Of a stretch of 44,066 nucleotides of DNA, positions 16,773 through 43,991 are shown piece by piece; within the stretch, counting starts at the first letter, position 1; each line of letters begins with the position of its first letter. Where the stretch lies: NCBI GenBank assembly GCA_029093145.1, contig GCA_029093145.1_4347.1; one strand, given 5' to 3'. The notes under the pieces were generated by a model, which did not search any database, was not told the origin of the DNA, and was given only the letters and a program-made list of their open reading frames with translations. The stretch comes from a phage. The position numbers and the translations under genes were made by a program.

Positions 16773-16870
16773 TAGAATAATTTTGCGCCTAGTGTCGCAC
16801 ACGAAAAGCGGGTGGTTCCCGTCTGGCGCATTTCCTTTAACCAGTAACCTCTTAACCAAAGGATTAAAGA

Positions 16871-17287
16871 TTGAAACTTTCTGATTTTTATTACGAAGCG
16901 GAAGCCGAAAAGGGCGCACGTATGCCGATACCGCTAAAAGACGGTACTGATTCCGGGGAATGGCTTAATGTTGTTTCTCCTGAGGCGGACGTTGCCGTTA
17001 AGGCTATGCGCGCGTTCACCCTTGCATACCGGGCAGTATTAGGGAAATTAAAACCGCTTCGTGATAAGTGCGAAGAGATGAAAGATTTCTCTGAATACAA
17101 CCTGAAGATGGAAGACGCGGCGACGGACCTTAACCGTCAGTTAGCGATTGAATTGGTTAACGGGTGGAGCCTTGACGACGAATTCAATAAAGAGAATCTG
17201 AACACACTCCTGACGCAATATAAACGACTCGCGGAACTTGTTGTTGTGTTTCATAACGAACAACTGCACCAGCTACAGGAAAAGTAG
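16871..17287 (+). CDS. tail assembly chaperone (gpG-like)
   Basis: Position immediately upstream of tape measure; TTG start with SD AAGGA. Confidence 0.55.
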   Translation: MKLSDFYYEAEAEKGARMPIPLKDGTDSGEWLNVVSPEADVAVKAMRAFTLAYRAVLGKLKPLRDKCEEMKDFSEYNLKMEDAATDLNRQLAIELVNGWSLDDEFNKENLNTLLTQYKRLAELVVVFHNEQLHQLQEK

Positions 17288-40321: not shown

Positions 40322-40442
40322 ACCCACGGCGCCGAATCATGGCGCCAGTGCCGACGACTCTGAGGGAGGTTGCCGTGAATAATTACCCGTTTATTTTAAT
40401 TGCCAGCGCCGTTTATGTGGCGCACGCGTTGTGGGGGTTGGT

Positions 40443-40598
40443 ATGAGAATCCGTATAACTGACCGCAGGCTTATAGATTTCGGTATCTCGGTAGGTGATG
40501 TTTTTCTGGCGTTCAGCAGCAACCATTATGGGTATATGATTGAGTACAAAGGGTCGCTATTGTTCGTGTATCGGGATGAATGCGAGGTTCTGGTATGA
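40443..40598 (+). CDS. hypothetical small protein (51 aa)
   Basis: Hand-translated ORF. Confidence 0.3.
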   Translation: MRIRITDRRLIDFGISVGDVFLAFSSNHYGYMIEYKGSLLFVYRDECEVLV

Positions 40599-40738
40599 GA
40601 GAAGCATTCGAACGGTGGGCCATCGTCGAGGGTCTGCCGGTTAATAAGGGTTCGAAGAAAGAGTACCTGAACGTTAAGACGCGTCTCGCGTGGCGGGCGT
40701 GGAAAGCTGGTGCGCAAGCTGTGATGAATAAGGGGTGA
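40595..40738 (+). CDS. hypothetical small protein (47 aa)
   Basis: ATGA overlap with upstream ORF. Confidence 0.3.
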   Translation: MREAFERWAIVEGLPVNKGSKKEYLNVKTRLAWRAWKAGAQAVMNKG

Positions 40739-40741
40739 TTT

Positions 40742-40927
40742 ATGGGCGAGTGGATTAAGTGTAGTGAGCGGATGCCGGAGCCTTATGAATACGTTCTTGT
40801 AACTGATTGTTTTGTTGGCTGTGAGGTTATGCGTGTTAATTCAGATGGCTACTGGGGGCCTGCAAAGAGTTTATATCACGGTGATATAACGCACTGGATG
40901 CCGTTACCTGAGCCGCCGGAGGTGTGA
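40742..40927 (+). CDS. DUF551-like phage protein
   Basis: C-terminal HWMPLPEPPEV motif recalled as typical of this family. Confidence 0.4.
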   Translation: MGEWIKCSERMPEPYEYVLVTDCFVGCEVMRVNSDGYWGPAKSLYHGDITHWMPLPEPPEV

Positions 40928-41051
40928 TGTTCAATAGTTCGGGATTTTACTGAGTGACTTACGCTGCTACACAGCAGCGTATCATTTTTCTCATTTTTGT
41001 TCTATTTCACCAAACGCAACAATCGAAGCGACTATTGCAGGAGATGCAACA

Positions 41052-41228
41052 ATGGAAACGTTCACAGAGAAACTTATGTGGTGCGTTGCAAAGCGAGACG
41101 CTGCGGCCAGAAGCTACCGTAAATGTGCCAACTGCGGCAGCGAGCAGGTACAGCTAATCTCGTACCTGGGCGGCACGGTTACACATAAGTGTCGAAAGTG
41201 CCATCACGTACATTCACAACACCAATAA
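41052..41228 (+). CDS. small zinc-ribbon protein (58 aa)
   Basis: SD AGGAG; CANCG ... CRKCH four-cysteine pattern (hand-translated; track shows a different frame 40954-41157). Confidence 0.4.
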   Translation: METFTEKLMWCVAKRDAAARSYRKCANCGSEQVQLISYLGGTVTHKCRKCHHVHSQHQ

Positions 41229-41235
41229 AATTTAC

Positions 41236-41264
41236 TTGCACACTAAGATAGAATAGGCTACTAT
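41236..41264 (+). promoter_or_regulatory. class B promoter TTGCAC-N17-TACTAT
   Basis: TTGCACACTAAGATAGAATAGGCTACTATTCA; dyad 41252-41265. Confidence 0.5.
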
Positions 41265-41295
41265 TCATTTACACGAACGAGAGGAGAGACAGAAG

Positions 41296-41421
41296 ATGAA
41301 AGATTATAGTGAAGTAACTTTAGGCGAGTTGCAGGACGAGTACGAAGATATGCTCTACCCGTTCATCTGCGACGGAGATTACAACGGCGTCTATAACGGA
41401 GTGAGCGAAGAATATGAATAG
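41296..41421 (+). CDS. hypothetical small acidic protein (41 aa)
   Basis: SD GAGAGGAGAG; hand-translated. Confidence 0.35.
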   Translation: MKDYSEVTLGELQDEYEDMLYPFICDGDYNGVYNGVSEEYE

Positions 41422-41923
41422 CAAAAACGAAGTATTTGAGTACCTGATTAACCAACTACGGCAGCAGGTGAGTAACAACCCATATAAGCAACAGTGCGAA
41501 GACTTGGCGCATGAGGTGCAGTCACTCAAGAATCAGTTACGTGATGCGTCAGCACTGGTGGCGGAGTTACATGAAACAATAAAACTAATGAACGAGGACT
41601 TTAACCGTGCAACCGGGCGAGGTGGCTCACTGCCGAAAGGGGAGAGCTACGTAGTAGGTGAACATGGGCCCGAGCAATCCGGTTGCCGTAAGGAAGATAC
41701 TCAGGAATGCGAGCACTCTTGGATTATTATGCCTGGGTTGTTTCTCAGCGAAGGCAATACGAACAACGTTCCTGGTAGTGAGCTTTGCTCTAAATGTGGT
41801 AAACGTGAGTGGGACGACAAGGAATATAAACCGAAAAACGATACACAGGAGTGCGAGCATGAATGGGAATATTATTACCCCGACGGTAGGCGTTGTACCA
41901 AATGCGGGGTGATAAACTTATGA
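41414..41923 (+). CDS. hypothetical protein with repeated Cys/His motifs
   Basis: Repeats DTQECEH(S/E)W and C(S/T)KCG; N-terminal coiled-coil-like region. Confidence 0.5.
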   Translation: MNSKNEVFEYLINQLRQQVSNNPYKQQCEDLAHEVQSLKNQLRDASALVAELHETIKLMNEDFNRATGRGGSLPKGESYVVGEHGPEQSGCRKEDTQECEHSWIIMPGLFLSEGNTNNVPGSELCSKCGKREWDDKEYKPKNDTQECEHEWEYYYPDGRRCTKCGVINL

Positions 41924-42123
41924 CCAGCATCTTATTTATCTGGGTACTGTCCGCAGGCCAGATGCACCTCGCGGCATCGGAAACGTTTTATTCTATGGAG
42001 GCGTGCCAGTCCGCGGCACGCGCAGCAGAGAACGCGCACTTCCTGTTTCAGGGTGACAAGCCCAACGATTCGGAGGTACGCGCTATCTGCTCACCTAAGC
42101 GACTTGGTAAACAGGAGAAGTGA
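41920..42123 (+). CDS. small putative secreted protein
   Basis: ATGA overlap; N-terminal hydrophobic signal-like segment MTSILFIWVLSAGQMHLAAS. Confidence 0.45.
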   Translation: MTSILFIWVLSAGQMHLAASETFYSMEACQSAARAAENAHFLFQGDKPNDSEVRAICSPKRLGKQEK

Positions 42124-42125
42124 TT

Positions 42126-42407
42126 ATGGTACAGAGATACGATTTAAAAGAAGACTGGGTTACGGGGCGTATTGACTTAGAGAAAGACGCAGACGGTGAC
42201 TGGGTTGATTACGAAGACTACGCGGAACTTGAGCGTAAGTTCAATGAACTCAGGACATGGCGTACGCAGATACTCAATGACGCTTTCGACTTTTTATCGC
42301 AGGCAGAAAAAGCGGAAGCCGAGTTGCAGAAATACAAGGACCAGTTCCCGGATTACGTAGAGTGCGCGAACTGCGGGTCAATTACACATGTGGAAGGGGT
42401 GGAGTGA
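42126..42407 (+). CDS. hypothetical protein, paralog A
   Basis: SD AGGAG; shares MV(Q/H)RY start and WV-x-YEDYAEL-x-RK motif with next gene. Confidence 0.5.
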   Translation: MVQRYDLKEDWVTGRIDLEKDADGDWVDYEDYAELERKFNELRTWRTQILNDAFDFLSQAEKAEAELQKYKDQFPDYVECANCGSITHVEGVE

Positions 42408-42586
42408 TGGTGCATAGATACGAAAACGACCACGGCGATATGTTTCAGGCCGCGGGAGGGCGCTGGGTCCTATACGAAGACTACGCGGAGCTGGCGCGTA
42501 AACTGCGCGAGCTTGCTAAGCAGGTAGTAAACAGTCCGTGCGACTGGAAGACGGATGAATTAGCGCGCGAGATTCTGGACCTATGA
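42407..42586 (+). CDS. hypothetical protein, paralog B
   Basis: Overlapping start; MVHRYENDHG ... RWVLYEDYAELARK. Confidence 0.45.
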   Translation: MVHRYENDHGDMFQAAGGRWVLYEDYAELARKLRELAKQVVNSPCDWKTDELAREILDL

Positions 42587-42876
42587 GCCTTGCAACTGAC
42601 ATCCTGAAACGGAGCGGCCTTGCGCCGCTGTCGCCGAGAGCGAACACACGAATATACAAGCGTCGCCGTAACGTGCTGTACCCAGAGATTCAGGACAGAC
42701 GTAAAGCTATCCGCGCCTGTGGATTCCAGAACGGGAAGGCTGTGAATCTCGGTGAGTTTAAAACGCAGGAACGTGCGGCTATCGCTAATCGGTTATTTAA
42801 TTACTGGAAATCGCTGGGTTATGAAGATATTCCGACGAAACCACAGAGACGACAATACATCTGGCGTCATAAATAA
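42583..42876 (+). CDS. hypothetical basic protein (97 aa)
   Basis: ATGA overlap with upstream gene. Confidence 0.5.
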   Translation: MSLATDILKRSGLAPLSPRANTRIYKRRRNVLYPEIQDRRKAIRACGFQNGKAVNLGEFKTQERAAIANRLFNYWKSLGYEDIPTKPQRRQYIWRHK

Positions 42877-42951
42877 ACCGTTATTAAGATAATTCCTAAC
42901 CGTGCTATCCTCCAGTTACTGCATACTTAATACGCACCTGGAGGATTCATC

Positions 42952-43260
42952 TTGGATAAATTTACTGAAACAGTGACAGGCTGGCTTCTCGCTGCCGCGC
43001 TAGCCGGAGGGGTAATCGGACTACGACAACATAAGTCTGTTATTTCTGGCCCCATCGACGGATTCTGCTTTATCGCAACTGGCTTCACTTGCGCTGTATT
43101 CGGCGCGCCTCTTGCCGCTCAATGGTTCGGTATTACCGGAGAGCGCGAGATAGCTGGCCTCGGATTCATCATCGCAATTCTCTGGATGCCCATCTATTCC
43201 CGTCTCTCCGGTATCGTCTCTGGAGAATACATCGCTCGTCGAGGAGGCACAGATGAATGA
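42952..43260 (+). CDS. holin (putative, multi-TM)
   Basis: TTG start with SD GGAGG; hydrophobic segments; immediately upstream of endolysin region. Confidence 0.5.
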   Translation: MDKFTETVTGWLLAAALAGGVIGLRQHKSVISGPIDGFCFIATGFTCAVFGAPLAAQWFGITGEREIAGLGFIIAILWMPIYSRLSGIVSGEYIARRGGTDE

Positions 43261-43525
43261 GTTATTCTGGTTCGGTGGTATGCTGGCAATCGGGGGCACA
43301 TCGCTGTTTAATGTGTATCATCCCAGCGTGGACGACGGATTATTTGGCCGGGTGCTCTATATCCAGACTGCCATCGTCTGTGCTGCCGGATGTATCCACC
43401 TGTTACAGGGCAGCATGTCACCGACGCTGCCTGAGACATTAATCACATTAGTTGCGCTGCGCCAGATTCGTCAGGCGTGGCTGTCATACGGAGGGCATAA
43501 GCGTGTCTCGAAATATTTCAGATAA
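43253..43525 (+). CDS. small membrane protein (holin/antiholin partner candidate)
   Basis: SD GGAGG; hydrophobic segments LFWFGGMLAIGG and IQTAIVCAAGCIHLL. Confidence 0.45.
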   Translation: MNELFWFGGMLAIGGTSLFNVYHPSVDDGLFGRVLYIQTAIVCAAGCIHLLQGSMSPTLPETLITLVALRQIRQAWLSYGGHKRVSKYFR

Positions 43526-43991
43526 TGGATTGCATTTCTGTGCCGCGTTCGAGGGATTCCGCGGAACTGCGTATCGCGCTACGCCGAATGAGAAGTACCT
43601 GACGATAGGCTATGGGCACTATGGGCCGGACGTAACACCTGGCAGGACCATCACGCCAGGGCAGGGCCTCCTGTTACTGAATCGCGATATGGCTAAGGCC
43701 GTAGCCGCGGTCGATGCCGCAGGACACCATTCACTGACACAGGCACAGTTCGACGCCGTGTGTGACCTGGTCTATAACGCCGGTGCTGGTGTGATTGCGG
43801 CTACTACCGGCACGGGTAAGGCTCTGTGTTCCGGCGATATTGCAACACTGCGGGCTAAGCTGGCGCTGTTCATCAACCAGAACGGCAAGCCGTTACTCGG
43901 CCTGCGTCGCCGTACAGCCGGGCGTCTGGCGCTGTTCGACGGTAAACCGTGGCAAGAGGCTGAGGCTATTGGGCGCGCGGTGAAAGGTTGA
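43452..43991 (+). CDS. endolysin, GH24 lysozyme family
   Basis: FEGFRGTAYRATPNEKYLTIGYGHYG lysozyme motif; true start may be GTG 43503 preceded by GGAGGG. Confidence 0.85.
   Translation: MRCARFVRRGCHTEGISVSRNISDNGLHFCAAFEGFRGTAYRATPNEKYLTIGYGHYGPDVTPGRTITPGQGLLLLNRDMAKAVAAVDAAGHHSLTQAQFDAVCDLVYNAGAGVIAATTGTGKALCSGDIATLRAKLALFINQNGKPLLGLRRRTAGRLALFDGKPWQEAEAIGRAVKG

Follow-up and report, generated by a model that had tools for sequence, protein, structure and literature searches.

Two short genes that stand side by side in a phage genome, begin with almost the same peptide and carry a second motif in common raise a simple question: are they copies of one gene, made locally and since diverged, as the initial annotation of this DNA had it, or do they share some more limited part? 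The answer that we consider probable, though well short of certain, is that the two, which we call g1 and g2, are real, translationally coupled accessory genes sharing only one ancient mobile N-terminal module, with tails that have been shuffled in a hot-spot slot. This reading builds on what was observed directly, namely that the genes are real, where their homology ends, how widely the module occurs, how its copy number varies, and where the mosaic joints fall.

Two overlapping genes and the extent of their homology

The window, that is, the whole 44,066-bp stretch that was analyzed, covers essentially the entire genome of an E. coli siphophage of the Kagunavirus type (Guernseyvirinae); an exact copy of g1 is on record on a contig of 44,066 bp. 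Comparison of region 41400-43000 with phage records returned 328 matches, the top ones to Kagunavirus and other Escherichia phages. The two genes lie within a string of small genes on the + strand (~40.1-42.9 kb) that continues, at 42952-43991, with two holin genes and an endolysin gene, and their parts are as follows.

42126..42407, + strand: g1, with ATG at 42126 and TGA at 42405-42407; 93 aa, pI 4.3; N-module, then a long helix, then a C-terminal AELQKYKDQFPDYVECANCGSITHVEGVE module
42126..42239, + strand: N-module of g1, residues 1-38, as drawn from profile, alignment and AF2
42126-42140, + strand: MVQRY strand of g1
42141-42200, + strand: variable hairpin loop of g1
42201-42239, + strand: conserved W-V-D-YEDYAELERK of g1
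42210..42344, + strand: single predicted helix of g1, residues 29-73 (45 residues), with a continuous heptad pattern
42318..42404, + strand: constant C-module of g1, AELQKYKDQFPDYVECANCGSITHVEGVE, nearly invariant in the family alignment
42363-42374, + strand: CxxC knuckle of g1, C80-C83
42407..42586, + strand: g2, with ATG at 42407 and stop at 42584-42586; 59 aa, MVHRY..., pI 4.9
Residues 1-32 of g2, + strand: N-module of g2, with the motif at 42464-42502
42503-42583, + strand: helix-loop-helix tail of g2, RKLRELAKQVVNSPCDWKTDELAREILDL

The g1 protein reads MVQRY...CANCGSITHVEGVE, and its stop codon overlaps the start of g2 as ATGA. Both are genuine genes, and both are coding. Relatives have both annotated as CDS, and across 21 DNA variants of the g1 C-module the synonymous share of codon differences is 68%. 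Already catalogued as hypothetical proteins and PHROGs, the genes themselves are of low novelty, and the Kagunavirus literature makes no mention of them. The minus-strand ORFs beneath them (35-47 aa) are without support, a search of Rfam gave no match in the g1/g2 region, and a scan for promoters and terminators gave no usable signal.

The initial annotation gave the coordinates and sequences of the pair correctly, and the features on which it built its case hold: both genes begin MV(Q/H)RY, WVxYEDYAELxRK is common to both (g1 residues 26-38, g2 residues 20-32), and the CANCG cysteine pair belongs to g1 alone (C80-x2-C83), g2 having one cysteine (C45). Pairwise alignment, which had been proposed as a check, bears out the similarity, with BLASTP pairing residues 1-56 of g1 with residues 1-47 of g2 at 23/56 identities and E 3e-9. 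The Smith-Waterman score is 84, compared with 26 +/- 5 for 5000 shuffles of g2, none of which reaches it (z = 11). Identity is concentrated in residues 1-5 and in the 13-residue motif, and homology ends after ~45 N-terminal residues. The concern that the likeness might be confined to a short low-complexity stretch can be set aside because the shared stretch, although short, is specific, and a profile of it recovers hundreds of proteins.

It is the inference drawn from these features, local duplication and divergence, that was not borne out. A recent tandem duplication of one gene in this phage would account for two adjacent, overlapping genes on the same strand with the same start peptide and motif, but the C-terminal halves are non-homologous, so that homology does not run along most of both proteins as it would in whole-gene duplicates. 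Nor is there the nucleotide similarity that local copying would leave, the sole direct DNA repeat within 40400-43000 being 42200-42238 / 42463-42501, 39 nt at 82% identity around a 17-nt exact core, TACGAAGACTACGCGGA. Further, each gene is much closer to its counterparts in other phages than to its neighbor; g2 is 100% identical in phage vB-Eco-KMB35, whereas the g1 of that phage differs. The pair or single members of it occur across Kagunavirus, and the module occurs as well in distant relatives and in lambdoid phages. Tandem duplication is thus already largely refuted, and we regard it as very unlikely. The claim of paralogy stands for the N-terminal module and fails for the C-terminal halves, which fall into different PHROGs and have different predicted structures. 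In sum, g1 and g2 are domain-sharing paralogues in a recombining accessory slot rather than products of recent local duplication.

Predicted architecture and the breadth of the N-terminal module

In PHROGs, g1 and g2 are direct members of phrog_29624 and phrog_37174, both families of small Guernseyvirinae proteins labeled "unknown function." The match of g1 to phrog_29624 (E 4.6e-25, 88.6 bits) comes in two pieces, one N-terminal and one C-terminal, that cover profile positions ~1-40 and 29-60, and g1 can thus be read as a 60-aa family core with an inserted helix cassette. Residues 5-57 of g2 match profile positions 14-67 of 69 in phrog_37174 (E 3.4e-8), and g2 also matches the N-half of phrog_29624 weakly (E 0.007). 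The catalogue therefore splits the two into separate families without domain structure, whereas the shared N-module cuts across families, appearing also at the start of phrog_1378 and phrog_3592.

Structure prediction, another of the checks proposed at the outset, gave different bodies for the two proteins behind the shared head. The AF2 model of g1 from the family alignment (pLDDT 83) has strands at residues 2-9, 16-20, and 26-27, a helix at 29-73 with pLDDT 88-95, and a hairpin at 77-88 that holds the CxxC. In one register the helix is hydrophobic at 11 of 12 a/d positions; its middle (~42233-42315) is one of several alternative cassettes. Overall, the prediction for g1 is a beta meander, then 45 residues of helix with a heptad pattern, then one CxxC knuckle. 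The corresponding model of g2 has helices at residues 23-41 and 47-56 (pLDDT >90) behind an N-module predicted at low confidence (pLDDT 53-58), the N-terminus being poorly defined; the prediction is of the module plus a helical hairpin. The C-terminal half of g1, coiled coil plus CxxC knuckle, is unrelated to the helix-loop-helix of g2, and because both the PHROG assignments and the AF2 bodies differ behind the head, the pair has the head and nothing else in common.

The module itself is far more widespread than the two genes. Its consensus is an M-V-x-R-Y strand, a hairpin of variable length and sequence, and G-x-(W/Y)-V-x-Y-E-D-Y-A-x-L-E running into an alpha-helix, ~35-45 residues in all and almost always at the very N-terminus. 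A head-only profile of 38 positions, searched against 1.84 billion representatives at a threshold of E<=1e-3, recovered 644 protein clusters (at 50% identity). Among the best 144 of these 644, the module starts at residue 5 or earlier in 130, the median length is 75 aa, pI is below 5.5 in 90%, and two modules occur in one chain in 8. The clusters, at least 644 in number, span virulent and temperate enterobacterial phages. Partners of the module include an EaE/Ead-like C-terminal domain, a WTVW...DIIAYRV domain, zinc ribbons, and plain coiled coils. One lambdoid Enterobacter phage has a module-bearing "EaE protein" in its early-left operon, between N and xis/int, and in Deseoctovirus C1 a module gene lies in the small-gene string upstream of terminase. 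Neither Pfam nor NCBIfam has a model for the N-module, the novelty of which, as a cross-family module lacking a model in either, we consider moderate; the cluster names and contig context of the distant module proteins yielded nothing informative.

The two-module polypeptides look like a fused equivalent of the tandem g1-g2 pair, judging by their sequences. In seven such chains (P0144, P0148, P0151, P0189, P0190, P0222, and P0245) a helix follows each copy of the module.

A bolder interpretation is that MVxRY...YEDYAxLE is an undescribed, widespread docking or oligomerization head whose hairpin is under diversifying pressure, and that g1 and g2 bind host factors or defense systems, with loops and tails swapped. 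We hold this interpretation only tentatively and would sooner expect it to be wrong than right. Under the reading that we prefer, accessory genes with a shared mobile head and shuffled tails, module and helix may likewise serve as a common scaffold, with the variable loop and the C-terminal module supplying specificity. Although g1 and g2 alone are a routine case of mosaic small accessory phage genes, a by-product of their study is a clean definition of an unnamed N-module now scattered over several "unknown function" families, which provides a handle for grouping hypothetical genes of Kagunavirus, more distant members of its phage group, and lambdoid phages.

A mosaic slot between two conserved genes

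Homologues of g1 number 431 proteins of 53-157 aa, nearly all on phage contigs of ~44 kb; those of g2 number 22, almost entirely on contigs of ~44 kb. A "pre-mRNA-splicing factor" label on one relative was taken to be an annotation artifact. The genes that bound the pair, and a further member of the same pool of mosaic genes, are these.

41414..41923, + strand: 169-aa gene of the same mosaic pool; coiled coil plus two ECEHxW...CxKCG (CHCC) modules; phrog_6094
41920..42123, + strand: upstream flank of the slot; conserved 67-aa protein with hydrophobic N-terminus; phrog_3766, E 4e-36
42583..42876, + strand: downstream flank of the slot; conserved 97-aa basic protein; phrog_9632, E 2.4e-54

The start of the phrog_9632 gene overlaps the g2 stop as ATGA. 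Its protein is without a Pfam match and has a weak match to a PHROG of HNH endonucleases; the stretch NGKAVNLGEFKTQERAAIANRLF resembles an AP2-type DNA-binding motif.

When 63 related loci were fetched, anchored on this downstream gene, the slot was found to hold 0, 1, or 2 module genes, which answers the suggestion that copy number be compared in related phages: the module HMM finds no copy in 27, one in 23, and two in 15. Because the phrog_3766 and phrog_9632 genes abut directly in ~17 related loci, the genes in the slot must be dispensable. The positions at which sequences have been exchanged were taken from the ends of BLAST segments between the 44,066-bp genome and the related loci, and these ends fall overwhelmingly at five sites: 42119-42146, at the gene start and MVQRY; 42229-42233, just after YEDYAEL; 42315-42318, the start of the g1 constant C-module (20 loci); 42403-42411, the g1/g2 junction; and 42583-42592. 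The slot combines short genes, overlapping stop and start codons, variation in presence and absence, and exchange at gene or module borders. Since the exchange points inside genes are both ends of the variable hairpin and the start of the constant C-module, single proteins are three-part chimeras.

The proteins of the family show the same build. MVQRY, a hairpin of 10-25 residues that comes in discrete classes, and G-x-(W/Y)-V-x-YEDYA-x-LE make up the first part, cassettes the second, and the tail the third; between head and tail, g1-type proteins carry up to two helix cassettes, drawn from several alternatives, or lack one altogether. We counted ~27 classes of loop and ~20 of tail (C-terminal module), and 15 of the 27 loop classes were found with two or more tails (g1-type, g2-type, or other). 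For instance, P0114 has the g2 loop (ENDHGDMFQ...) on a g1 tail, and P0135-P0138 have g1-type loops on g2 tails. The g1 of this genome is itself a chimera, with a loop like that of one set of phages and a helix cassette like that of another, and its C-module together with g2 is 98% identical to KMB35. The C-terminal block of the 169-aa gene is found fused behind g1-type genes in other phages, residues 88-167 of its product being 70% identical to the C-terminal extension of the g1-family protein P0070.

Two of the related loci hold natural hybrid genes, recombinants between the tandem genes. In L032 (2672-3004), a g1-type head, cassette, and QKYKEQFPDYV are fused directly to a g2-type tail, with the joint at DYV. 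In L021 (2604-2810), a head with a foreign tail still ends in HVEGVE, the terminal sequence of g1, and there overlaps the ribosome-binding site of the next gene.

Judged by sequence, the g1/g2 slot is probably a case of ordinary phage mosaicism, dispensable and heavily recombining. This hot spot has a conserved gene on either side and lies upstream of the holin-endolysin cassette; within it, loops, helix cassettes, and C-terminal modules are probably re-assorted, both between phages and between the tandem genes, through recombination at conserved motif borders. In the natural swap series that result, a given head recurs with several tails and a given tail with several loops, and such series could be used to map binding.

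The coincidence of mosaic joints with the motif and the MVQRY start raises the alternative that the motif serves first of all as a linker for recombination at the DNA level, a "boundary sequence" kept because it enables exchange of cassettes, and not as a conserved protein domain. The 17 nt of exact identity between g1 and g2 fit such a linker, as does the use of one codon: of 48 distinct genes, 32 use the rare codon AGA for the MVQRY arginine (codon 4; 42135-42137 and 42416-42418), although AGA makes up 6% of the Arg codons when the genome's long ORFs are counted, and the V and Y codons of MVQRY also lean toward A/T-ending forms. We read this bias as possible selection on the start region, but shared ancestry could also lie behind it. 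However, the Y-E-D-Y codons vary synonymously in genome-typical proportions, and the motif is thus kept at the protein level; hundreds of distant proteins keep the amino-acid motif although their DNA and contexts differ, and AF2 places the motif at the strand-to-helix junction of a small fold. A primarily DNA-level role is therefore improbable, although the two roles, recombination linker and protein domain, are not mutually exclusive.

Possible roles and neighboring features

For neither g1 nor g2 did Pfam or NCBIfam return a match that rose above noise. A search of PDB sequences and three fold searches gave nothing specific; matches in PDB were limited to generic long helices, and those in BFVD to uncharacterized relatives. 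Two apparent leads were rejected: the assignment of g2 to an NCBIfam "phage head-tail joining protein" or a PHROG "head-tail adaptor," which fell far short of the cut-off and would be misplaced in this part of the genome, and the best match of the module profile among PDB sequences (E 0.012 over 12 residues).

By analogy, the closest counterparts appear to be the Ea22/EaE early genes of lambdoid phages, Ea22 of lambda and Stx phages and EaE of the P22 type. In Ea22, a short segment at the N-terminus leads into a long coiled coil, behind which acidic C-terminal domains can be interchanged; the protein is non-essential and oligomeric, full-length lambda Ea22 being reported as a tetramer, and its make-up varies mosaically from phage to phage, within the mosaic lambdoid exo-xis region (PMC10834534). 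The g1 family likewise has a short N-segment, a coiled coil, and a swappable acidic C-terminal domain, and is mosaic. One Stx-phage variant of Ea22 has DUF551 as its C-terminal domain (PMC10834534), and in the genome studied here DUF551 stands as a gene of its own. Some N-module proteins, further, carry an EaE/Ead-like C-terminal domain and lie in an early-left operon. The N-module itself, however, is outside canonical EaE, matches spanning the C-terminal part only, and Ead_Ea22 (PF13935) has no match to g1 or g2 (E<=1) or to ten distant module proteins (0.01). Moreover, because this phage is virulent, the pro-lysogenic role of Ea22 is not transferable. From the small size, acidity, heptad helix, and dispensability of these proteins, as well as the hypervariable loop, free exchange of modules, and "ea"-type lambdoid neighbors (DUF551), we infer that g1 and g2 may be small acidic oligomeric (coiled-coil) accessory or host-interaction binding proteins in the manner of Ea22. 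Oligomerization and zinc binding are both suggested by monomer models and sequence pattern. The DUF551 gene encodes a 61-aa protein at 40742-40927 (+), with a clear match at E 1.2e-15 and 58.5 bits against a cut-off of 22.

The position of g1 and g2 directly upstream of the holin/endolysin cassette might instead point to regulators of lysis timing or of late genes. They share the + strand string that includes the holins and endolysin (42952-43991), and a hairpin that would sequester a ribosome-binding site lies ahead of the holin, but the slot is empty in about one-third of relatives with the same lysis cassette, and the module occurs in many other contexts, including lambdoid early-left operons. 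We give such a role little credence.

Very unlikely, too, is that g1 is an N-terminally extended zinc-ribbon protein of the Lar/RalR type (the restriction alleviation / small DNase toxin family). In longer relatives of g1 the zinc-ribbon model of Pfam for Lar, PF14354 (Lar_restr_allev; the Lar of the Rac prophage is RalR), is the top or only zinc-ribbon match (10 of 18 at E<=0.05, best 7.7e-5), and weak matches to phrog_3592, labeled "Lar-like," fall in the N-module region of distant members. However, the Pfam matches are sub-threshold, the long relatives for which bits are shown reaching at most 19.6 bits and g1 itself 13.0 bits (E 0.13) against a cut-off of 28.6 bits; g1 ends after the first knuckle, with two cysteines (one CxxC) and not four; and hhalign of the long-form g1-family alignment against E. 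coli Lar/RalR gives a probability of 2.3% over 14 columns. On these three grounds, sub-threshold bits, one knuckle, and failure in hhalign, we have not filed g1 as Lar-like. Published Kagunavirus isolates are, in addition, described as very sensitive to restriction-modification (PMC11990801), and there is thus no support from that side for an anti-restriction role; Bas70-76 are Kagunavirus isolates of the BASEL collection (PMC11990801), and Bas70-74 are among the relatives found here, Bas70 having an identical block of C-module and g2.

In the long relatives, HVEGVE is followed by ...QSGCRKEDAQECEHxW...CxxCG, which gives a second CxxCG, and the pattern, with the predicted structure, suggests that the lone CxxC of g1 may be a remnant of their full zinc ribbon or else half of a zinc site shared between subunits. 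Four of 18 long g1-family members match PF20576 (HEWD), again at scores short of the curated cut-off.

Several further features of the genome deserve mention. Some long forms with an extension of the 169-aa type match the Pfam HEWD domain. A 58-aa ORF at 41052-41228 (+) encodes a complete small zinc ribbon, KCANCGS...KCRKCHH, with the same CANCGS knuckle as g1, and has only weak zinc-ribbon matches in Pfam (best E 0.001). The holin starts at a TTG (42952), and ahead of it, at 42907-42946, the two 9-bp arms of an inverted repeat, ATCCTCCAG / CTGGAGGAT, enclose a loop of 22 nt; the 3' arm contains the holin Shine-Dalgarno sequence GGAGG. The RNA of 42890-42965 folds at -18.4 kcal/mol (z = -3.7), a stability that none of 200 shuffles attained, and the modeled hairpin could possibly serve translational control of the holin. 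At 16782-16846 (+), directly upstream of the block of tail genes that starts at 16871, there is a match to the Rfam int-alpA RNA (RF02996) at 36.6 bits, against a gathering score of 35.8.
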